Virus record (IMG/VR): IMGVR_UViG_3300046007_008124
Span: 28,078 to 92,077 of that record
DNA from: a virus
Strand: one strand, 5' to 3'
DNA length: 64,000 nucleotides
The position numbers and the translations under genes are program-made. The notes under the pieces are model-generated. The model saw only the letters and a list, made by a program, of their open reading frames with translations. It ran no database searches and was not told the origin of the DNA. Below, piece by piece: positions 10,517 through 45,210 of this stretch; the stretch's first letter is position 1, and each line of letters starts with the position of its first letter.

Positions 10517-11257
10517 ATGTTTGTAACAGTATGTAATAAAGAATACCTCATAGGATTTGAGGTAATGTTAAAATCTTTAATAGATAATAATCCAAGAGTT
10601 GTTACTGATAATTTACCATTTGTAATTATTACAAACGATTTAAACCCTGAAGATTTAGTCACCTCAAGAACAATTTATAATAATATACATATAAAAAGAT
10701 TTGACGAATCAAAATATTCACAAATAGAGGAATTAAAAAAACAACAAATGGCATTTGGTGATTATACCAAATATGAAATTTTTTCTTTGACCGAATTTAA
10801 AAAAATTATATTTTTAGACTCCGATACAATAATATTAGGAAACATTGATTACCTTATTGATTTTAAAGAACCATTTGGTTGTGTGAGAGAATTATTTATT
10901 GATCAATATAACACCGGTGTTATGGTAATCGAAAATAAATATTTAAATCCAAAAATTACAGAAGATTTAATCAATCTAACAAACATTTATGGTATTACAG
11001 AACATTTAGATCAGGACATAATAAATAATTATTTTATTGATGTTATCACGCCAATTCCATTGGAATACAACTATCTTAAAATATATTCAAAACAAATTTT
11101 TCAAAACACCGGACTTCCGGAGTATATTAAAATAATTCATTATGTTGTTAAAAAACCTTGGCAACAAAAACCATTGGTAATATTAGAAGAAGGAACACTA
11201 TGGACCGAAAGATATTGGTTTGAGTATTATTCAAAAGTACTAAAGTTAAAAATATAA
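10517..11257 (+). CDS. Glycosyltransferase family 8 (glycogenin/LgtC-like)
   Basis: IIFLDSDT (DxD), YNTGVMVI, DQDIIN and IIHYVVKKPW are classic GT8 motifs. Confidence 0.85.
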   Translation: MFVTVCNKEYLIGFEVMLKSLIDNNPRVVTDNLPFVIITNDLNPEDLVTSRTIYNNIHIKRFDESKYSQIEELKKQQMAFGDYTKYEIFSLTEFKKIIFLDSDTIILGNIDYLIDFKEPFGCVRELFIDQYNTGVMVIENKYLNPKITEDLINLTNIYGITEHLDQDIINNYFIDVITPIPLEYNYLKIYSKQIFQNTGLPEYIKIIHYVVKKPWQQKPLVILEEGTLWTERYWFEYYSKVLKLKI

Positions 11258-12165
11258 TGGTTAAAAGACATTACGGACAACACGAGCTATTGGAGTATGT
11301 TGAATTAGATAAAGACGCTCAAACATTAGAAGGAAAAGTAATTTTAATGCACTTTGATTCTTTTTGTCTTGGCGATACAATTTGTTTTTCCTCTTTTATT
11401 GACGCTTTTCTTGATTATCACAAACCAAAAAAAGTAATTATCTCAACATTTTTTATACACTTATTCAAATCAACGGATGAAAGATATGAATTTATTAACG
11501 CAAATCAAAAATTAAAATTAACTGTTGATAAATTAATTGATGTTGGTTACGATAAAAATAGTTTAGAAGATACAAAAGGTGGTATGATGTGGGCAACAAA
11601 AAGAACAATGATGTTACCACAAGAAACAAAACCTAGAAAATGTCCGGTTATTCCATATGAAAGAAAAATAATCCCAAATAAAATAACAATTGCACCAGAG
11701 TCATTAAAAAAAATTGCTCAGTGGAACCATTTTGGAAATTACGGTTGGCAATCATTGGTAAATGAAATTGTAAATTCTGGATTTGTGGTTTCAAATGTTT
11801 CATACGAAAATACAATGAATTTACAAAATGTAACTGGTTTTCACGGTCACGATGATATTAGGGTTGCATTAAATGAAATTTTATCATCACGAGTATTTGT
11901 GGGATTATCTTCTGGACTTGCTTGGCTTGCTTGGGCTTACGGTGTTCCGGTTGTTATGATTTCTGGCTTTACAAAAGAACATAATGAATTTAATTGTTAT
12001 AGAGTTACAAATAAACTTTCTTGTAATGGTTGTTTTAATTTATTTCAAAATATACAATCAACTTGTCCTTTATTTTTGGGTACCGATAGAGAAAATGAGT
12101 GTCATAAATCAATTACACCACAAATGGTTATTGACAAAATAAACGAAGCTCTTAAATTTAATTAA
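11257..12165 (+). CDS. Aah/TibC-like (autotransporter O-heptosyltransferase family) GT-B protein
   Basis: LGDTI catalytic-loop motif; FVGLSSGLAWLAWAYGVPVVMISGFT; C-terminal four-Cys iron-finger pattern CNGCFN...CP...ECHKSITPQMV. Confidence 0.75.
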   Translation: MVKRHYGQHELLEYVELDKDAQTLEGKVILMHFDSFCLGDTICFSSFIDAFLDYHKPKKVIISTFFIHLFKSTDERYEFINANQKLKLTVDKLIDVGYDKNSLEDTKGGMMWATKRTMMLPQETKPRKCPVIPYERKIIPNKITIAPESLKKIAQWNHFGNYGWQSLVNEIVNSGFVVSNVSYENTMNLQNVTGFHGHDDIRVALNEILSSRVFVGLSSGLAWLAWAYGVPVVMISGFTKEHNEFNCYRVTNKLSCNGCFNLFQNIQSTCPLFLGTDRENECHKSITPQMVIDKINEALKFN

Positions 12166-12170
12166 AAATT

Positions 12171-13055
12171 ATGGAAAAAAAATATAGTGTATTTCACATA
12201 GAGGGTGGTCTTGGTAAACATGTTTTAGCAACAGCAGTTGCAAGATGTATTAAAAATAATCATCCGGATAGAGAACTAATTGTTGTTTGTGCTTATCCAG
12301 AAATTTATCTTAATTTAGATTTTGTTAATCGTGTGTATAGATTAGGTAACACACCTTATTTTTATGACGATTATATAAATGAAAAAGATAGTTTAATTTT
12401 CAAACACGAACCGTACTTTACTGAAGATCATATTCATAAAAAATTATCATTAATCCAAAACTGGTGTAAATTATTTAACCTTGAGTATAGTAATGAAAAA
12501 CCAGAACTTGTTTTTAATTTAAGACAACAACAAATTGGTATTAATAAATGGCAAAGACAAAGACCAATTATGGTTATTCAAACAAACGGTGGACCATTAA
12601 ATGACCAACCGTATCCGTATTCTTGGACAAGAGATATACCTATGGACACTGCTCAACAAATTGTAAATTCATTTAAAGACTATTATCATATAATTCAAAT
12701 TTGTAGACACGAATCAAATGCTCTTCAAGGTGTTGAGGTAATTAAAGAACCGATGTCAAATATGGAATTATTTTCACTTCTTTTATTTTCACAAAAAAGA
12801 TTGTTAATTGATTCTTGTTTACAACATGCCGCAGCAGCGCTTGGTTTACAATCAACAGTTCTTTGGGTTGGTACATCACCAAAAGTATTTGGTTATAATT
12901 TACATAATAATATTGTAGCACAACTACCAAACACAGTCAAACTTCCGGATAGTTATTTATTTGACTATAACTTTAATGGAATGGTTCACGAATGTCCGTT
13001 ATTTGACACAAACATCTTTAACATAAACGAAATAATAGAATCACTAAAAAATTAA
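12171..13055 (+). CDS. GT9-like (ADP-heptose transferase superfamily) glycosyltransferase
   Basis: N-terminal IEGGLGK; C-terminal IDSCLQHAAAALGLQSTVLW matches the GT9 DSxxxHxAAALGxP pattern. Confidence 0.65.
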   Translation: MEKKYSVFHIEGGLGKHVLATAVARCIKNNHPDRELIVVCAYPEIYLNLDFVNRVYRLGNTPYFYDDYINEKDSLIFKHEPYFTEDHIHKKLSLIQNWCKLFNLEYSNEKPELVFNLRQQQIGINKWQRQRPIMVIQTNGGPLNDQPYPYSWTRDIPMDTAQQIVNSFKDYYHIIQICRHESNALQGVEVIKEPMSNMELFSLLLFSQKRLLIDSCLQHAAAALGLQSTVLWVGTSPKVFGYNLHNNIVAQLPNTVKLPDSYLFDYNFNGMVHECPLFDTNIFNINEIIESLKN

Positions 13056-13056
13056 A

Positions 13057-13875
13057 ATGGTACAAAAAATTTTCTTTCAAAGCTCACTACCTAGAGCAGG
13101 GTCTACATTACTACAAAATGTAATGGGTCAAAATCCAGATTTTTACGTTACACCAACATCAGGTGTATTAGAACTTGTATATGCCGCAAGAGCAAATTAC
13201 ACTTCATCACCAGAATTTAAAGCACAAGATACTCAACTAATGAGAGAAGGGTTTTTAAATTTTTGTAATCAAGGTGTTCAAGGTTTTTTTAATGCTGTAA
13301 CGGATAAACCCTATGTTTTAGATAAAAGTAGGGGTTGGGGTGTTCATTACGGATTTTTAAATTCATTTTATCCTAACCCAAAAGTAATTTGTATGGTTAG
13401 AGATTTAAGAGGAATTTTTGCATCTATGGAAAAAAACTTTAGAAAAAATCAACATATGGATTCTGGAATTGTAAATCACGCACAAATGCAAGGAACAACA
13501 ACAGAAAAAAGAATTGATATTTGGGCACAGTCACAACCGGTAGGATTAGCAATAGAAAGGTTACATCAAATTTTTAAAGAAGGTAACAATCAAAAAATGT
13601 TATTTGTTAAGTTTGAGGATTTTTCATCAAACCCAAAAAAAGAAATGGAACGTATCTATCAATACTTGGAATTACCTTATTATGAACATGATTTTAATAA
13701 TGTTCAACAAATTACACAAGAAGATGACAGTGTGTATGGAATTTATGGTGACCATAAAATAAAAAGTAAAATAGAACCATTAAAACCAGATTATAAAGAA
13801 GTTTTGGGTGTTAACGCATCTAACTGGGTTAAATCTAATTATCAATGGTTTTATGATCAATTTGGATATTTTTGA
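13057..13875 (+). CDS. PAPS-dependent sulfotransferase
   Basis: 5'-PSB loop SLPRAGSTLL, 3'-PB motif MVRDLRGIFAS, and VKFEDFSSNPKKEMERIYQYL. Confidence 0.85.
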   Translation: MVQKIFFQSSLPRAGSTLLQNVMGQNPDFYVTPTSGVLELVYAARANYTSSPEFKAQDTQLMREGFLNFCNQGVQGFFNAVTDKPYVLDKSRGWGVHYGFLNSFYPNPKVICMVRDLRGIFASMEKNFRKNQHMDSGIVNHAQMQGTTTEKRIDIWAQSQPVGLAIERLHQIFKEGNNQKMLFVKFEDFSSNPKKEMERIYQYLELPYYEHDFNNVQQITQEDDSVYGIYGDHKIKSKIEPLKPDYKEVLGVNASNWVKSNYQWFYDQFGYF

Positions 13876-13878
13876 TTT

Positions 13879-14334
13879 ATGAAAGAGAAAAAAATATATT
13901 GGTTTACCGGACAACCTGGTGCTGGAAAAACGGTGTTATCTTTAAGATTAAAAAAGTATTTAGAACAAGAATATGGACAAGAAGTATTCCATATTGATGG
14001 TGATGAGTTAAGAGTTTTATTTAAAAACATAAACTACGGTAGAGAAGGTCGTGAGGAAAATATAAAAAGAGCTCAAGATATTGCAAAATTTATTCACTCA
14101 CAAGGTTATGATGTAATTGTTAGTTTAGTTGCACCATATAAAGAAATGAGGGAAAGTTTTAAGTATGATTTAAAAAATTTACTAGTTGAGTTTTATGTTC
14201 ACACAACAGACATTAGAGGTAGAGAACATTTTCACACGGATGAATATGAAGGTCCTACAGAAAATTTTGTAGATATTGATACAACAAATGTTGATCCACA
14301 AATATCATTAAACGAAATAATCAAACACATATGA
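13879..14334 (+). CDS. cysC: Adenylyl-sulfate (APS) kinase
   Basis: WFTGQPGAGKT P-loop, IDGDELR, GREENIKR and VSLVAPY. Confidence 0.88.
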   Translation: MKEKKIYWFTGQPGAGKTVLSLRLKKYLEQEYGQEVFHIDGDELRVLFKNINYGREGREENIKRAQDIAKFIHSQGYDVIVSLVAPYKEMRESFKYDLKNLLVEFYVHTTDIRGREHFHTDEYEGPTENFVDIDTTNVDPQISLNEIIKHI

Positions 14335-14783
14335 GTTGGGAAAAGAAAAATTATGGGGGGGATCCAACAACAAATGAAAGTAAAAAATATGCAATTTTTA
14401 TTGGCCGTTATCAACCACCACATTTTGGGCATTTAGAGTTATTTGAACAAAAACTAAAACAAGGAGTTCCAATTTTAATTATGGTTAGGGATATTGAACC
14501 AGATGAAAAAAATCCTTTTACAACAGAGCAAACAGTGTTTTTATTGGAAAAATATTTTTCAAATAAAAAATTAGATGTTAAGGTTATGGTTATTCCTGAT
14601 ATTGAGTCGGTAAATTTTGGTCGTGGTGTTGGTTATGAGGTTAATGAATTTATACCACCAAAAGACATTGGTGGGATTTCAGCAACTGGAATTAGAAATT
14701 CCATTAAAAATAAAGATGATTATTGGAAAAAAATGATAGACGAATCAATCCAAAACGATATTTTTAATTTTTTGACTAATTAA
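14331..14783 (+). CDS. HxGH (cytidylyltransferase-like) nucleotidyltransferase
   Basis: FIGRYQPPHFGH and ISATGIR motifs; start overlaps the cysC stop (ATGA). Confidence 0.8.
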   Translation: MSWEKKNYGGDPTTNESKKYAIFIGRYQPPHFGHLELFEQKLKQGVPILIMVRDIEPDEKNPFTTEQTVFLLEKYFSNKKLDVKVMVIPDIESVNFGRGVGYEVNEFIPPKDIGGISATGIRNSIKNKDDYWKKMIDESIQNDIFNFLTN

Positions 14784-15599
14784 ACTATCAAACTCTGAAA
14801 AATTATTATCTTTTATTACAATATAATTATAAATTTTTTCAGATGTTTCTTTTTTAAGTTCATTAATTCTTTGGTTTTTTTGCCACATATATGATGATTT
14901 TATTTCTATTACAATATTGGTATTTTTAATTTTAAAATCCGAAAAATAATTGTGTGTTAAACCATTATCATCTACGTATTCAATTACCGGACCTCTTTCT
15001 AACATCGTAAACAGTCCAATTTTTTCACAGTATTTAATAAATTCTAACTCATAAGTACTTTGATAATCAATTCCTTTATATTGTTTAATTATGGTTTTTC
15101 CCCATCTGTTTTGTGGTTTTAATATACCAGTTTTATACGCCTTTTTAATTGACTCACTTAATTTTTTTTTAGTTTCTTCTGATCTTTTTGTACCCTTGTT
15201 TTTTTTAGCAATCTTTTTCCAAACTTGTTTATTAATATTATTTTGTTTTGTTGAGTCCCAGGTAAATGGATTACCACGTTCTTCTAACATCTTATTTCGT
15301 GCTTTAATAAAATTTTCATTTGGTTCTACACCATACATACCATTTCTATTACCTTTATTCATACATTTAAAACAATAATCAATATTACCATTTATTCCAC
15401 AAATTCTTTTTTCAAATGTGGCACCACAATCATCACATTTTATTTTTAATTTTATTCTTCTGTATGATGTTGTTTTCAATAACGACCAATTTATAAAAAA
15501 AGGTTTATTTATTTCTGGAGTAAAACCTAGTTTTGTTTCCCAAGTTTTAAGTTTTAATTTAGATTTAATTTTTATTTCTACCATTTCATTTAGTACCAT
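14745..15599 (-). mobile_element. Free-standing putative homing endonuclease (Zn ribbon + NUMOD3-like + PD-(D/E)xK domain)
   Basis: CDDC...CFKC, KRSEETKKKLSESIK, YQSTYE...YFSDF...IEIKS. Lies antisense within a + strand operon. Confidence 0.7.
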
Positions 15600-15719
15600 A
15601 ATCTTTTTTTATTATAAATACTACAAAATACAGATTAATACCAAGACAATTTGGTCACATTTAATTTTCTATTAATTTACATATAAATAATACATAATAT
15701 TTTTATAAAAAAATGACTT

Positions 15720-16160
15720 ATGAAAACGCAGAGCAAAACATATCAAATTAGATATAATACAATTTCAAAAAACGATACCGAAAGGTGGAGATTAATAGAA
15801 AATGGAAATGAAATTTTAGTTTCTGATATTATAATTGATGGTCATACGTACACAACAAAAGACTGGATACCGGAAATAAATGATTATAAGTGGCACATAA
15901 GTTGTGTTGGTTATTGTGTTGTTAAAAACAATATTGCATATATCACAACAATAAAAGAAGAATCTGTTGTTATTAGACATATATTAAAAACACTAACATA
16001 TAGATTTTTTGCAACAATTACAACAATTACAACAGCATTATTATTAGGTGCATCAATTGAGGTTTCGTCATTAATTGGTTTAGGTGAATTACTAATAAAA
16101 CCTATAATTTATTTTTTCCACGAACGAGTTTGGTATAAATTTATAAAAGTTAAAAAATAG
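15720..16160 (+). CDS. DUF2061-containing membrane protein with extra N-terminal domain
   Basis: C-terminal RHILKTLTYRFFAT...KPIIYFFHERVW matches the DUF2061 pattern. Confidence 0.7.
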   Translation: MKTQSKTYQIRYNTISKNDTERWRLIENGNEILVSDIIIDGHTYTTKDWIPEINDYKWHISCVGYCVVKNNIAYITTIKEESVVIRHILKTLTYRFFATITTITTALLLGASIEVSSLIGLGELLIKPIIYFFHERVWYKFIKVKK

Positions 16161-16192: not shown

Positions 16193-16612
16193 ATGAGTCA
16201 AAGTATTACAATAAATAGTGTTTTATATGATGGTGAGTTAGCAAGTATATTATTCAAACCAGACAATTCTGACGATGTAATTAATCTTGGTCTTGTTGAG
16301 TTACCTTTTACATTTTATCCTAATTTATTAAGTCCACCAAGAGAAGTATATGGTAGTTATACAATTTTGGTTCAAGGTTCAAGTTGTTCAAAAACATTAA
16401 ATGTTCCAAGACCAACACCTACACCTACACCAACAGTTACTCCTACAAGGACCCAAACACCAACACCCACACCAACTAATACACCAACACCATCTTTTGA
16501 TCCGTGTAAAGTACCAACACCAACACCAACTAATACACCAACACCAACTAATACACCAACAGTAACACCAACACCAACAGTTTCTTGTACAAATCCATGT
16601 GGTTGTTTTTAA
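16193..16612 (+). CDS. Small Pro/Thr-rich (mucin-like stalk) putative virion protein
   Basis: Long (PT)n tracts; TATTTAT motif upstream. Confidence 0.65.
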
Positions 16613-16653
16613 CAACAACTTTATAATAAAGACAAATGTTTTATAATTAATTA

Positions 16654-19600
16654 ATGCAACAAATAGAAATTACAGGAGTTACCGGAACAGGACCTTATCA
16701 AGTCGAAGTTTGTGATATAACAAACACAACTTGTGTTGTTGTAACTGGATCAACAATTATTCCGCCAACATATACTTTTGATGTTCCACCACCATTTGTT
16801 GGTACAAACTCTTTATTAATCAAAATTACAGATTCATTAGGTTGTGAGGTATTCCAATACTACTCTTGTCCACCAACTCCCACACCAACACCAACTCCGA
16901 CATTAACTCCAACACCTACACCAACATATCTTTGTTATTGTATTACAGCAATTAACACAACAAATAATAATGGATATTTTAATTACATAGATTGTAATGG
17001 AAATTTACAATCATCTGTATTTGTTGCAAGTGGAACAACATATTATACTTGTGGGATTCACCCATCAAGTCAAATTAATGTAAAAACAACTGTTGGTGGG
17101 TTTTGTGATTCAAATCAGTCTTGTCCGACACCATCTTGTACTCCAACACCAACAAATACACCAACACCAACACCAACACAAAAAGGTAGGTTTAAAGCGT
17201 TATATAGAACAACAAATACCTCATCTGGTTCATCTGGAGCAAGTCAATTAAGATTACCATTAGAATCAACTGGTAATTATAACTTTACGGTTTATTGGGG
17301 TGACGCGTCAAGTGATGTAATTACAGTATGGAATGATCCATTAACAACACATACCTATGCAGCGCCTGGTGATTATCTTGTTGAGATTGATGGAACAATA
17401 GAAGGTTTTAGATTTGCAAATACCGGTGATAGGAAAAAGATATTAAGTGTTTCAGATTGGGGTATTTTAAAATTTGGAAACAACGGTGATTACTTTTATG
17501 GTTGCTCAAATTTGACATTAAATTCAGTTAATGATACTCCAGATGTTTCATTAACAACAAATATGTCTCAAGCATTTAGGGAATGTTCATCACTTACATC
17601 ATTTAATAATTTAAATTCTTGGAATATGTCCCAAGTAACTGATACATCATATATGTTTGCAATATGCCCAACATTTAATCAAAACATTGGTTCTTGGGAT
17701 GTATCGTCTGTTACAAATATGCAATCAATGTTTTATAATTGTTCTTTATTTAATCAAGATATTACAAACTGGAATGTATCAAATGTTGATGATATGTCGT
17801 ATATGTTTTGTGAAGCGGCATTATTTGATCAACCAATAACCGGTTGGTCGGTATCTGCTGTAACAAATATGGCTGGAATGTTTTCTGATGCAATATCATT
17901 TGACCAAAACATCGGAACTTGGGATGTTTCAAATGTTAGTTTTATGAACAATATGTTTGAGGGTGTTGTATTATCAACACAAAATTATGATTCAATATTA
18001 TGTGGTTGGTCTAACTTACCAACACTACAATCAAACGTTGTCTTTGATGGTGGTAACTCTCAATATACAACTTCAGCAGTAACTTGCATTGTAACATTGT
18101 CGACATCACCATATGATTGGACAATACTAAATGGTGGTCAATCAAGATTTGAATCAACTTGGGATACAACATTAACCTCATTAGGTTCTTCATTAGGAAA
18201 TCAAGTTATGTTACCTTTAGAATTAACAGGGATATACAACTTTTTTGTTGATTGGGGTGATGGAAATTCGGATAATATTACGGTATGGAACGATCCGGCA
18301 ACAACACATACATATGTGACATCAGGAATTTACACAATAAAAATATATGGGCAAATAGAAGGCTGGAGATTTAATAACACCGGTGATAGATTAAAACTGT
18401 TAAGCATTCAAAGCTGGGGGTCTGATTTCAGATTAGGTAATAATGGTTCATATTTTAATGGTTGTACTAATTTAGACTTAAGTGGTGTTTCAGATATTTT
18501 AGATTTACAAGGAACAACTACTTTATTTAGGACATTTAGAAACTGTGGTTCTTTAACAACTGTTTCTAATATGAATTTATGGGACACATCAAATGTCACA
18601 AATATGTCAGAAATGTTTATTAATTCATCATTTAATCAACCAATTGGAACTTGGGACACATCTTCTGTTACAGATATGAGTAGTACATTTTTTAATGCCG
18701 CATCATTTAACCAACCAATTGGAACTTGGGACACATCTTCTGTTACAACAATGTTTCAAATGTTTGCTTTTGCAACATTATTTAACCAACCAATTGGAAC
18801 TTGGGACACATCTTTTGTTCTAACTATGGGTGGTATGTTTGCCAACGCAACATCGTTTAATCAAAATCTTGGATCTTGGAACATAATATCTGTTACAGAT
18901 ATGAATGGTATGTTGAACAGTTGTGGAATGAGTTCAACAAACTACGATTCAACATTATGTGGTTGGTCATTACTACCAACATTACAAACTGGGGTTTTAT
19001 TAGGCGCTTTAGGTTTATTTTATTCACCAGCCGGTCTTACTTGTAGAAATATATTAACCGGAACATATTCTTGGGTAATAACCGGTGACAACCCTTTAGT
19101 AGTAACACCGTTTGTCTCAAATTGGGACACAACTCAAACAAGTGGTGGTTCATCATTAGCAAACCAAGTACAGTTACCATTAGATTTTAGTGGTACATAT
19201 AACTTTACCGTAGATTGGGGTGATGGGTCACCAATTGATACAATAACGGTATGGAATGATCCATTAACTTTACATACTTATGGTGTGTCTGGAACATATA
19301 CAATAACAATTACAGGACAAATAGAAGGATTTAGATTTAATAATACTGGTGATAGAGATAAATTATTAAATATTACAAGTTGGGGTCCTAATTTTAGATT
19401 AGGTAATAATAATAGTTATTTTTATGGTTGTACAAATTTAGATTTAAGTTTTGTTTCAGATATTTTGGATTTAACAGGTACAATATCAATGACTAATACT
19501 TTTAGAGATTGTACATCATTAACAACAGTAAATAATATGAACTTGTGGGACACATCTTCAATTGTAAGTATGTCTAGTATGTTTCGTAACGCAACATCAT

Positions 19601-20235
19601 TTAATCAACCAATTGGAACCTGGGATACCTCTTCCGTTACAACTATGGGTAGTATGTTTAATAATGCAACATTATTTAACCAACCAATTGGTACTTGGAT
19701 TACATCTTTAGTTACAAATATGACTCTTATGTTTGCTGGCGCAACATCATTTAACCAACCAATTGGAACCTGGGATGTATCTTCGGTTATAACTATAAAT
19801 GCTATGTTTGATACTGCAATATCATTTAACCAACCAATTGGAACCTGGGATGTGTCAAATATTACAGATATGAGCGGTATGTTTCAAAGTGCTACATCAT
19901 TTAACCAACCAATTGGAACTTGGAATACATCGTTAGTTACAAATATGATTAGTATGTTTAATAATGCAACATTATTTAACCAACCAATTGGTACTTGGGA
20001 CGTTTCATTAGTGACAAGTATGAATAATATGTTAGATAATTGTGGGTTAAGTCAAGCAAATTATGATAACTTACTTATAGGTTGGTCAATATTACCATCA
20101 CTACAACTTGGTGTTACACTTGGTGCTTTAAATATACAATATACACAACCACCAAGTGCTGTGGCTTTAGCTAGAAATACAGTTTTAATTGGAACTTATG
20201 GATGGACAATTGTTGGTGATATTCCGGTACCATAA
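16654..20235 (+). CDS. PKD + DUF285 (BspA-like) repeat surface protein, three modules
   Basis: Three (V/Y)xWGDG...HTYxxxGxY PKD units, each followed by about 25-aa [20 protein letters not shown] repeats; PT linkers near the N-terminus. Confidence 0.85.
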
Positions 20236-41844: not shown

Positions 41845-44800
41845 ATGGCAACTAACAGTAAAGTATTTGTATCACCAGGTGTTTATACTTCTGAAGTAGA
41901 TTTAAGTTTTGTAGCACAAAGTGTTGGTGTTACAACTTTAGGTATTGCTGGTGAGACATTAAAAGGTCCGGCATTTGAACCTATATTCGTTAGAAATTAT
42001 GACGAATACACTACTTACTTCGGTGGAACCACACCTGAAAAATTCGTAAACACACAAATTCCAAAGTATGAGGCATCATACATAGCAAAAGCATATTTGC
42101 AACAATCTAACCAATTATTTGTTACAAGAATATTAGGTCTTTCTGGTTATGATGCTGGACCTTCTTGGTCTATTGTAACTAAAGCTAATGTTGACCCAAC
42201 AACAGTTAAATTTAATTGTGTTAGCGGTGCTGTTGATCCGTCAACTTGTGAATTTGTTTGTTACACAGCTAAAACATTATCATTTGTTGTAAACTTTACA
42301 GGGTGTACAAATGGTATAAGTACTATTAGCTTTGAGACATCATTTCCAAATGAAATAGAATCTATATTAACTGAAGATTATGAAGGTTTTGATGGTTCAA
42401 TTTCTACAATTGATAATGATATTAAAAATTTAATTAACAATGTTATAAACGATGTTAACCCATTAACAGCACAAACAAATAATATAAGTTATTTTGGTGC
42501 TATTGATGGTGATGACTATGATACGTTAGCAACAATATTTTCAGCAGAAACAAATGTATATGATGTACCATCAGTTTCTGGTTTTAAAAATGATGGGACA
42601 TCGGTTAACGATTACACATCTCCATTTAATGATGCGTGGTATTATTCATTATTTGATAATGTAGGTGGAGGATCTTATTCAGGATTTTCGTTCTTTACAT
42701 ATGTTGATGATTTATTTGAGATTATCCCAATTACAACTACTTCAACAACAATGACACCTTCACCAACACCATCAGCATCACCGGTTAATCCTTGTGTTAG
42801 TCCAACGCCATTAACTTCACCAACACCAACACCAACTCCGGTTAATATTGATTGTTGGTCAGGTAGTGTTGTTGGTAAAATCTATTACTATGAAGGTGTG
42901 TCTTATACTGATTATGATGATTTAGTAATTGGAACTTTAAGATCAAGAGGTATTGCAACATATTCAGATGCTAACAATCCTGTTTATGAAGTATCTAATA
43001 TTAATAATGTTAATTTAGATATGACAGGACAATATGTTGGTGTACTTAAAAACCCATATTTACCATTTGCAATTAATGTGACAAATGATAGTGGAACAAA
43101 CTTTACTTTTGAAACTTCATTTAGTCAATCAGATTCACAATACATTGCAAAAGTATTTGGTGGTACTAACTTTGGTAAACCAAGACAATCTACACCATTA
43201 TTCTTAGAGGAAAGATTCCAATCTCTTTTAAATTACGGTTGGAGAAAAGGATTTATTAGAGGATTGAGTTCTGAAATTGTTGCATTAGATTCGGCACAAA
43301 GTGAAAGTCCACAGTCTATTGGTTGGTATTTAGATAGATATCAATCACCATCTTCACCTTGGGTTGTATCAGAATTAAGAGGTAATAAAACTTTTAACTT
43401 ATTTAAGTTTTACACAATTTCTGATGGTAATAGTGCAAACTCCGAAGTTAAAATTTCATTCATTAATATGTCATTTGCCAATAGAACATTTGATGTTTTA
43501 GTTAGAGATTATTATGACGTAGATTCAAATCCAGTTGTGATTGAAAAATTCACAAACTGTTCTATGGACCCATCTCAAAATAATTTTATTGCTAAAAAAA
43601 TTGGAACGCTAGATGGTGAATACGAATTAAATTCAAAATATATAATGGTTGAGATGAATGAGGACGCACCAATAGATGCACTACCTTGTGGTTTTGACGG
43701 TTATACATTTAGAGAATATGCTGGTGTTAAATCTCCATTCCCAGTTTATAAAACTAAATATGATTTTCCTGGTGAAGTAATTTATAATCCACCATTTGGT
43801 TTATCATCTGGAGCTGACGATTCAATTAGAAGTTCTGGTGATAATATCAGAAGAACTTACCTTGGTTTCTCAAATAATATTGGTTTTGATACAAGTTTCT
43901 TTGAATATAAAGGAAAAAGAAGTCCATTAACAACTTGTGAATTAGAAGGTGGCGAATGGGCTTACAGAACAAGAGGATTCCATATGGACCAATTTGCTAG
44001 TGGTATTACAATTTCTAGTGGATTTGCAACAAGTGGAACACCAAAATATTATGTAGGCGCGGCATCTTTCTCTTCTGAACCAACAGATATTAATAGTCCA
44101 TATTATAGATTATTCTCAAGAAAATTCACAATGTTAGTTTATGGTGGATTTGATGGTTGGGATATCTATAGAGAATATAGAACTAATGGTGATAGATTTG
44201 TTTTAGGTCGTCAAGGATTCCTTAATGGTGCTTGTGTGTCAGACAGATACCCAACAGCAACAGGGTGGGGTGCGTTTAAACAAATCTCAATTGGTGATGG
44301 TACAACTGACTATGCAAATACAGATTATTACGCTTACTTATTAGGTATTAAAACTTTTGCTAACCCAGAAGCTGTTAATATTAACGTATTCGTATCACCT
44401 GGTATTGATTATGTAAATAATAGTGATTTAGTTGAGGCGACAATTGATATGATTGAAAACGAAAGAGCTGATTCACTTTATATTGCAACAACACCGGATT
44501 ACAATATGTTTGTTCCTACAACAACTGAAGGTGATAATTTAATTTACCCACAAGAAGCTGTTGATAACTTGGAAACAACTGGAATTGATTCTAACTATAC
44601 GGCAACATATTATCCTTGGGTATTAACAAGAGATAGTGTAAACAATACACAAATCTATATTCCAGCAACGGCTGAAGTTACAAGAAACTTGGCACTTACT
44701 GATAATATAGCATTCCCTTGGTTTGCAGCGGCTGGTTATACTCGTGGTATTGTAAATTCAATTAAAGCTCGTAAGAAATTAACACAAGAAGACAGAGATG

Positions 44801-45210
44801 TCCTTTATGTTGGAAGACTAAACCCAATCGCAACATTTGCCGATGTAGGTACCGTAATTTGGGGTAACAAAACTCTACAAGTAAGAGAGTCAGCACTTGA
44901 CAGAATCAACGTAAGAAGATTATTGTTACAAGCAAGAAAATTAATTTCAGCTGTATCTGTAAGACTATTGTTTGATCAAAATGATGAACAAGTAAGACAA
45001 GACTTCTTGAATGCGGTTAATCCAATATTAGATGCGATTAGAAGAGATAGAGGTTTATATGACTTTAGAGTTACTGTATCAAGTGATACTGAAGATTTAG
45101 ATAGAAACCAAATGACTGGTAAAATTTATATCAAACCAACAAGGTCTCTTGAATTTATTGACATCACATTCTACATTACACCGACTGGTGCGTCTTTTGA
45201 TGATGTATAA
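41845..45210 (+). CDS. Contractile tail sheath protein (gp18-like)
   Basis: VSPGVYTSEVDLS, YYPWV, PWFAAAGYTRG, WGNKTLQ, LDRINVRRLL, IYIKPTRSLEFI. Confidence 0.95.
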   Translation: MATNSKVFVSPGVYTSEVDLSFVAQSVGVTTLGIAGETLKGPAFEPIFVRNYDEYTTYFGGTTPEKFVNTQIPKYEASYIAKAYLQQSNQLFVTRILGLSGYDAGPSWSIVTKANVDPTTVKFNCVSGAVDPSTCEFVCYTAKTLSFVVNFTGCTNGISTISFETSFPNEIESILTEDYEGFDGSISTIDNDIKNLINNVINDVNPLTAQTNNISYFGAIDGDDYDTLATIFSAETNVYDVPSVSGFKNDGTSVNDYTSPFNDAWYYSLFDNVGGGSYSGFSFFTYVDDLFEIIPITTTSTTMTPSPTPSASPVNPCVSPTPLTSPTPTPTPVNIDCWSGSVVGKIYYYEGVSYTDYDDLVIGTLRSRGIATYSDANNPVYEVSNINNVNLDMTGQYVGVLKNPYLPFAINVTNDSGTNFTFETSFSQSDSQYIAKVFGGTNFGKPRQSTPLFLEERFQSLLNYGWRKGFIRGLSSEIVALDSAQSESPQSIGWYLDRYQSPSSPWVVSELRGNKTFNLFKFYTISDGNSANSEVKISFINMSFANRTFDVLVRDYYDVDSNPVVIEKFTNCSMDPSQNNFIAKKIGTLDGEYELNSKYIMVEMNEDAPIDALPCGFDGYTFREYAGVKSPFPVYKTKYDFPGEVIYNPPFGLSSGADDSIRSSGDNIRRTYLGFSNNIGFDTSFFEYKGKRSPLTTCELEGGEWAYRTRGFHMDQFASGITISSGFATSGTPKYYVGAASFSSEPTDINSPYYRLFSRKFTMLVYGGFDGWDIYREYRTNGDRFVLGRQGFLNGACVSDRYPTATGWGAFKQISIGDGTTDYANTDYYAYLLGIKTFANPEAVNINVFVSPGIDYVNNSDLVEATIDMIENERADSLYIATTPDYNMFVPTTTEGDNLIYPQEAVDNLETTGIDSNYTATYYPWVLTRDSVNNTQIYIPATAEVTRNLALTDNIAFPWFAAAGYTRGIVNSIKARKKLTQEDRDVLYVGRLNPIATFADVGTVIWGNKTLQVRESALDRINVRRLLLQARKLISAVSVRLLFDQNDEQVRQDFLNAVNPILDAIRRDRGLYDFRVTVSSDTEDLDRNQMTGKIYIKPTRSLEFIDITFYITPTGASFDDV

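Follow-up and report, generated by a model that had tools for sequence, protein, structure and literature searches.

A phage gene module that pairs a short APS kinase with a small HxGH nucleotidyltransferase, a candidate minimal ATP sulfurylase

Background

All assimilation of sulfate, and all sulfation, begins with sulfate activation. To our knowledge, only two types of enzyme are known to carry it out, Sat and CysDN. Here we describe a small gene module in a 64,000-nucleotide stretch of viral DNA (hereafter the window; bases 28078-92077 of the 92-kb IMG/VR record IMGVR_UViG_3300046007_008124), which encodes a sulfotransferase (ST), a short adenosine 5'-phosphosulfate (APS) kinase of the CysC type, a nucleotidyltransferase of the HxGH superfamily (NT) and a protein with a DUF2061 domain. 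All gene coordinates given below are window positions. From conserved gene order, gene fusions, structure modelling and the distribution of known sulfurylases among carriers, we propose that NT is probably a minimal ATP sulfurylase, a newly recognised candidate kind of this enzyme, and that with CysC, ST and DUF2061 it would form a self-contained cassette for making and using 3'-phosphoadenosine 5'-phosphosulfate (PAPS).

Results and discussion

Organization of the module

The four genes recognised in the initial annotation of the window were confirmed both as open reading frames (ORFs) and in their Pfam families (Table 1). All of them lie on the + strand, tightly packed and at the coordinates first assigned to them. 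ST starts 1 nt past the stop codon of the preceding gene, the cysC-like gene starts 3 nt past the ST stop, and the overlap between the cysC stop and the NT start, likewise noticed at the outset, is an ATGA at 14331-14334. The DUF2061 gene had been placed next to NT on its downstream side; the order stands but the adjacency does not, as the two genes are separated by an insertion of 933 bp that carries an endonuclease-like ORF on the reverse strand and was overlooked in the initial annotation. In a relative that is 84% identical (L001) the insertion has no counterpart and its flanks abut, with 84-85% identity by blastn. The endonuclease-like ORF overlaps the 3' end of NT by 39 nt; it is carried by the insertion and stands outside the pathway. 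Given this insertion beside NT and a Cys-rich extension found ahead of the NT domain at the N-terminus of a distant relative (P0203), mobile endonucleases may use the borders of the NT gene as a landing site.

Table 1. Features of the sulfation module and its upstream neighbours (window positions)
Feature	Position	Strand	Length	Matches and remarks
GT8 glycosyltransferase	10517-11257	+
ORF	11257-12165	+		no Pfam match
ORF	12171-13055	+	294 aa	no Pfam match at E<=0.01; no PDB relative
Sulfotransferase (ST)	13057-13875	+		Pfam Sulfotransfer_3 and Sulfotransfer_1
Short APS kinase, cysC-like	13879-14334	+	151 aa	Pfam APS_kinase
HxGH nucleotidyltransferase (NT)	14331-14783	+	150 aa	Pfam CTP_transf_like
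Endonuclease-like ORF	14745-15599	-	284 aa	phrog_15137 endonuclease (E 1.2e-8); weak Pfam DUF7487
Insertion, mobile-element-like	14785-15717	.	933 bp	no counterpart in L001
DUF2061 protein	15720-16160	+	146 aa	PF09834

The sulfotransferase and the short APS kinase

By its family matches, ST is a predicted PAPS-dependent sulfotransferase of the Sulfotransfer_3 family (PF13469; 78.1 bits against a cut-off of 27, E 1.5e-21), with a second match to Sulfotransfer_1 (PF00685; 51 bits, cut-off 22, E 1.7e-13). Its 5'-phosphosulfate-binding (5'-PSB) loop, PRAGST, occupies residues 12-17. The nearest solved sequence is that of tyrosylprotein sulfotransferase 1 (TPST1), a weak match (E 3e-5) confined to the N-terminal 120 aa, and this resemblance, the sole pointer to the acceptor, hints at what ST might modify.

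The cysC-like product matches APS_kinase (PF01583) with 73.5 bits (cut-off 21.1). In an alignment that includes canonical CysC (A4), the residues found to be invariant were the P-loop G11, G16 and K17, the DGD residues D40, G41 and D42, and R45, R58, N61, P86 and Y87. Short-lid APS kinases of about 150 aa (the window, L103, L106 and L108) form a clade common to these phages, to single-amplified genomes (SAGs) of Marinimicrobia and to one metagenome-assembled genome (MAG) of Flavobacteriales, and members of this clade always adjoin NT.

Sequence and fold of the nucleotidyltransferase

NT matches CTP_transf_like (PF01467) with 29.4 bits (cut-off 21) and carries the motifs GRYQPPHFGH (H31-F-G-H34) and ISATGIR (I116-S-A-T-G-I-R122), in which H31, H34, S117 and R122 show conservation of 90% or more across 69 aligned sequences. 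We assign it on this basis to the HxGH cytidylyltransferase-like superfamily, within which it stands outside both the Sat and the NMNAT family. A Pfam search gave no match of the window's NT to PF01747 (Sat) at E<=0.01, and two NT relatives show sub-threshold C-terminal matches to that family. The Sat motifs QTRNPxHRAH and GRDHAG (alignment A5) and the N-terminal PUA-like domain are not present in NT. An equivalence between the GRxVGY stretch of the NT family and the GRDHAG of Sat was considered, could not be shown and was not used. In the AlphaFold2 (AF2) model of NT (pLDDT 93), the best structural match was the NMNAT of M. jannaschii (1f9a; Z 13.8, rmsd 2.5 over 130 residues), and PPAT (4nah) and NadM gave Z 13.1 and Z 12, respectively. 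The catalytic domain of the Thermus ATP sulfurylase (1v47) aligned over 130 residues with Z 10.2 (VIA wide search); no Sat appeared among the Foldseek PDB matches listed for NT.

These matches raise the question of whether NT is an adenylyltransferase for nicotinamide mononucleotide (NMN) or nicotinic acid mononucleotide (NaMN), serving NAD+ salvage or the reconstitution of NAD+ against NAD-depleting defence, with its adjacency to cysC being coincidental or regulatory. The best NCBIfam match of NT is indeed the archaeal NMNAT subfamily NF002243, its closest PDB sequences are archaeal and NadM-type NMNATs (25% identity), the best fold match is the M. jannaschii enzyme, and phages are known from their annotations to carry NMNATs. 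However, the scores fall far below those of the families themselves (46.3 bits against a cut-off of 127 for NF002243, and 35.1 against 181.2 for TIGR01527), and every NMNAT family cut-off was missed. The GSAQ of the true NMNATs in the alignment is replaced in the NT family by IRD (R53, D54), and NPF or NPY is kept while the Arg of the NMNAT motif NPFTAGER is lost. At positions 97-102 the NT family has an invariant stretch of its own, GRxVGY (GRGVGY in the window), which HMMER places on the NMNAT segment FNSIW, which we take to be the nicotinamide pocket of archaeal NMNAT; some 20-30 residues between this stretch and SxTxIR are missing from NT relative to NMNAT. The acceptor region has two new invariant Arg residues, which would be suited to an anion, for example sulfate. 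Moreover, the constant partner of NT is an APS kinase and not Nampt, a Nudix domain or a ribosylnicotinamide kinase, and NadD was found above cut-off in all five NT-bearing genomes tested (two complete chromosomes, two Flavobacteriales and one Marinimicrobia SAG), so that NT is not needed for NAD synthesis. As an NMNAT role would also leave the mutual exclusivity of NT with Sat and CysD (described below) unexplained, we regard it as highly improbable. A NadR-like pair of NMNAT and ribosylnicotinamide kinase was ruled out by the identity of the kinase, which scores as an APS kinase with up to 240 bits.

Linkage and fusion to APS kinase in phages

The association of NT with cysC was surveyed across 65 IMG/VR viral loci, each with an NT homologue of 41-86% identity. 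In 64 of them a cysC-like gene adjoins NT on its upstream side, an arrangement far beyond chance; in the remaining locus NT lies at the contig edge. DUF2061 is present in 49 of the 65 loci, adjoining NT, and homologues of ST in 25. The pairing persists where cysC is of a different CysC type, only about 25% identical to that of the window; NT is therefore tied to the function rather than to a single gene lineage.

Fusions tell the same story. Longer relatives of NT comprise 119 proteins of 265-378 aa, all but one of which (P0203) contain PF01583, so that both the co-occurrence and the fusion of cysC with the nucleotidyltransferase, a survey of which had been suggested in the initial annotation, are borne out. 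Both domain orders occur (alignment A1), kinase-NT in most and NT-kinase in the others; in the NT-first representatives scanned, an APS kinase domain was found in five out of five (143-179 bits), and several of the kinases in the fusions are canonical CysC domains of full length. In one metagenomic protein of 214 aa (P0274), the fusion partner of NT is a DUF2061 domain instead. Cultured phages are represented as well: gp32 of Xylella phage Salvo (L066 4977-5723) is a kinase-NT fusion whose annotation reads only "kinase", and NT homologues also occur in phage Sano, in phage Bacata, where the annotation is 'adenylylsulfate kinase', and in Stenotrophomonas phage DLP_6. In Salvo, gp29 has a sub-threshold match to Sulfotransfer_4 (20.1 bits, cut-off 22.8). 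Complex prediction for the short CysC with NT returned a score of 0.00, which gives no verdict and counts neither way.

The absence of cysD and sat from the window, noticed at the start, extends to the whole 92-kb record, in which neither PF01747 (Sat) nor PF01507 (CysD/CysH) was found, the record being 31% complete according to CheckV. In five related phage genomes that carry the module and are 95-100% complete, neither Sat nor PAPS_reduct genes were detected. The concern that a canonical sulfurylase might be encoded elsewhere in the genome is thereby removed, as far as relatives allow.

An alternative that takes the pairing itself at face value is that NT nucleotidylates some other phospho-compound, and that the APS-kinase-like protein phosphorylates the product or the precursor, yielding a different activated donor, by analogy with PPAT and dephospho-CoA kinase or with sugar kinases and their nucleotidyltransferases. 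The HxGH enzymes among the closest structures use phosphate-ester nucleophiles, Sat-type sulfurylases being the exception; PPAT is as close to NT in fold as NMNAT is, the kinase of the window is divergent, short and below the equivalog level, and the module is surrounded by glycosyltransferase genes. Against this, many carriers have a canonical CysC as the partner (230-240 bits), the recurrent third gene is a sulfotransferase, which requires PAPS, and NT complements Sat and CysD across genomes equipped with CysH and sulfite reductase, a pattern specific to sulfate activation. We therefore judge a different donor to be unlikely. Pairs of the HldE or CoaD/CoaE kind were ruled out by the identity of the APS kinase (up to 240 bits) and by the same complementarity.

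Cellular carriers lack the known sulfurylases

Cellular homologues of NT (34-68% identity) were found in marine Flavobacteriales and other Bacteroidota, complete chromosomes of Dadabacteria/Thermodesulfobacteriota, Marinimicrobia, Chitinophagaceae, Patescibacteria, one Methanosarcinales MAG and haloarchaea. NT adjoins cysC in most of these carriers, a cysC-NT pair being present, for example, in the cultured Haloarcula amylovorans LR21 (L115), and the partner is often a canonical CysC (230-240 bits) of the same type as in cysDN operons. When 37 genomes with NT, bacterial as well as archaeal and drawn from several phyla, were searched for genes of the pathway, APS kinase was present in every one, Sat in a single genome, and CysD above cut-off in none. 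A CysH-like PAPS_reduct gene (about 242 aa) occurs in 16 of the 37, mostly complete Dadabacteria-type chromosomes, and sulfite reductase in all five NT-bearing genomes checked. With CysC, CysH and sulfite reductase present, the assimilatory route is thus complete except for a known sulfurylase.

The same pattern emerges within two larger samples. Among 151 Flavobacteriales genomes, 72 are CysC-positive, of which 67 have CysD without NT, five have NT without CysD and none has both (Fisher 7e-8); in the second sample, 81 genomes from the phylum of G015, 60 have NT only, nine Sat only, nine CysD only, three none of these and none has two (Fisher 3e-15), although both significance values are inflated by relatedness, as the NT-positive genomes of each sample may represent one or a few clades, and many of the sampled genomes are MAGs or SAGs. 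In Flavobacteriales, cysC adjoins cysD in the genomes with CysD and NT in the genomes with NT. Such exclusivity between NT and Sat or CysD is the classic pattern of non-orthologous displacement. In two Flavobacteriales genomes, one of them only 0.6 Mb, cysD is full of stop codons (12 in G161:C3:5775-7654 and nine in G155:C1:260105-260962), and in G161 the neighbouring cysC and DUF2061 genes carry stops as well; these sulfate-activation operons look like they are decaying.

NT could also be an auxiliary of APS kinase, engaged in scavenging or remodelling APS, PAPS or 3'-phosphoadenosine 5'-phosphate (PAP), or serving as a regulatory or scaffold subunit, with APS supplied by the host or made by a route not yet recognised. 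The host of the phage may supply APS, and the equilibrium of ATP sulfurylase is very unfavourable; CysD has a GTPase partner, CysN, and the 150-aa NT has none. Yet the invariant HxGH and ISxTxxR motifs argue for an active adenylyltransferase, Sat-type enzymes likewise work without a GTPase, and in the complete NT-bearing bacterial chromosomes the searches for Sat and CysD left no other candidate for the step. An auxiliary role is, in our estimation, very unlikely. The exclusivity with Sat and CysD is explained by none of the three alternative roles considered here.

DUF2061 as a companion of sulfate activation

The DUF2061 protein of the window matches PF09834 with 53.5 bits (cut-off 23.1) over residues 88-138 only, and no Pfam family was matched by its N-terminal domain. 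Pfam describes DUF2061 as a predicted membrane protein. DUF2061 genes were found in 42 of the 151 Flavobacteriales genomes, in about 32 of the 42 within 3 kb of cysC or cysD, and typically directly upstream of cysC-cysD (e.g. G092); the phage order cysC-NT-DUF2061 mirrors this bacterial order, DUF2061-cysC-cysDN. The proximity to cysC and cysD and the NT-DUF2061 fusion together mark DUF2061 as a conserved accessory of gene clusters for sulfate activation. As a guess, it might be a membrane anchor near the site of sulfate uptake or near the acceptor. In Flavobacteriales (G042-G186), the DUF2061 genes often encode tandem double domains.

Genomic neighbourhood and the phage

The genes around the module encode glycosyltransferases and repeat-rich fibre proteins. 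Homologues of the 294-aa ORF that precedes ST adjoin ST or DUF2061 in many related loci (e.g. L018, L027, L029, L045, L049 and L051). This ORF travels with the module and possibly belongs to the same pathway, as an enzyme that builds the acceptor or as some other accessory protein. Directly 3' of the module (16193-20235) are genes for a 139-aa Pro/Thr-repeat protein and for a 1193-aa protein that contains PTPT linkers in addition to three long internal repeats.

A giant virus of eukaryotes was the first suspicion for the source of this DNA; it was ruled out by PHROG matches to a tail sheath, a virion structural protein and a head-tail adaptor, which, together with matches to DNA polymerase and helicase, identify a large tailed phage. 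The tail sheath gene (41845-45210) encodes 1121 aa, of which only residues ~820-1118 match sheath families, so that the first 800 residues have no family assignment. Near-identical DNA is present in many lake-water DNA metagenomes, and no RNA dataset was found among the listed sequencing runs that hold it.

Weighing the proposed pathway

If NT is an ATP sulfurylase, the module would work as follows. NT, derived from an NMNAT-like ancestor, would transfer AMP from ATP to sulfate, giving APS and pyrophosphate (EC 2.7.7.4). The translationally coupled short CysC would phosphorylate the 3'-OH of APS to give PAPS and so pull the unfavourable first step forward, and ST would use PAPS on an acceptor; possible targets are glycans or virion proteins that stem from the glycosyltransferase and fibre genes nearby. 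The initial annotation had named glycans or the Tyr residues of the fibre repeats as candidate acceptors. The DUF2061 protein would act as a membrane-associated accessory of sulfate activation.

Several observations weigh against this proposal. The characterised enzymes nearest to NT, by sequence and by fold, are NMNAT and PPAT rather than Sat, and hhalign of the NT profile with the Sat domain profile reached a probability of 38%, over the N-terminal 60 columns only, with HxGH placed on HRAH. Beside the fusion gene of phage Salvo lies a gene for a NADAR-domain protein (gp30), an NAD/ADP-ribose-related context that would favour an NMNAT role. The short CysC misses the NCBIfam equivalog cut-offs (70.1 against 138.7 for TIGR00455), and about 15 lid residues are gone from it relative to the canonical CysC of L070. 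As it keeps all the residues that are invariant with canonical CysC but has a truncated lid, its activity as an APS kinase is likely rather than assured. The relatedness and draft state of many sampled genomes, mentioned above, belong on the same side of the balance.

On the other side, the suggestion of the initial annotation that the small HxGH protein makes APS is supported, as a strong prediction, by gene order, by fusions in both orders, by the exclusivity with Sat and CysD and by the lack of a canonical sulfurylase in relatives that are complete or nearly so. We also consider it fairly likely that the wider family of 130-160-residue NT proteins represents a third class of ATP sulfurylase, which arose from an NMNAT-like ancestor and has replaced Sat or CysDN in whole lineages, namely Dadabacteria-type bacteria, streamlined Flavobacteriales, Marinimicrobia, some Patescibacteria and archaea. 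Large phages would act as its vehicles, passing it on as a compact PAPS synthase along with CysC and DUF2061, the membrane protein.

Should this prove correct, many abundant aquatic bacteria, and phages too, would no longer be scored in pathway reconstructions as incapable of sulfate activation, and the orphan cysC genes of phages, counted as auxiliary metabolic genes, would be explained. DUF2061 would gain a functional context, the phage could sulfate its target independently of host sulfur metabolism, and a 150-residue enzyme would become available for the regeneration of PAPS in vitro.

Comparison with known systems

We found no description of the NT family as a sulfurylase in the open-access literature, an absence that is no proof of novelty. 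Large freshwater phages have been reported to carry cysC and cysH as auxiliary metabolic genes, and phage cysC to be transcribed in lakes (Chen and Banfield, Nat Microbiol 2024, PMC10914622). In the passages of that article consulted here, phage cysC is treated as one step of host sulfate assimilation, and the adjacent nucleotidyltransferase, DUF2061 and sulfotransferase genes are not mentioned.

With CysD/CysN, NT shares the operon position beside cysC, the phyletic slot and the association with DUF2061. The two differ in fold, PP-loop for CysD and HxGH for NT, and NT is a single small polypeptide without a GTPase partner. The closest relatives in sequence and fold are the archaeal, NadM-type and NadR-type NMNATs (1f9a, 2qjo; TIGR01527, NF002243), which have GRxQPxHxGH, NPFT and SxTxIR in common with NT; in contrast to them, NT scores below the family cut-offs, has IRD in place of GSAQ, lacks the Arg of GER and possesses GRxVGY, and its partner is an APS kinase instead of a Nudix domain or a ribosylnicotinamide kinase.

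Sat (PF01747) would catalyse the same reaction as that proposed for NT; it belongs to the same superfamily, has the His-x-x-His and S-x-T-x-x-R motifs, and is related in structure. At 150 aa, NT is smaller than Sat, in which a catalytic domain of about 210 aa is accompanied by a PUA-like domain; NT has neither GRDHAG nor QTRNP, stands nearer to NMNAT and PPAT, and constitutes a separate family. The natural fusions of Sat to APS kinase, as in the bacterial Sat-CysC of Aquifex (2gks) and the metazoan PAPS synthase (1x6v), nevertheless provide a close parallel, as NT is likewise fused to APS kinase in both orders.

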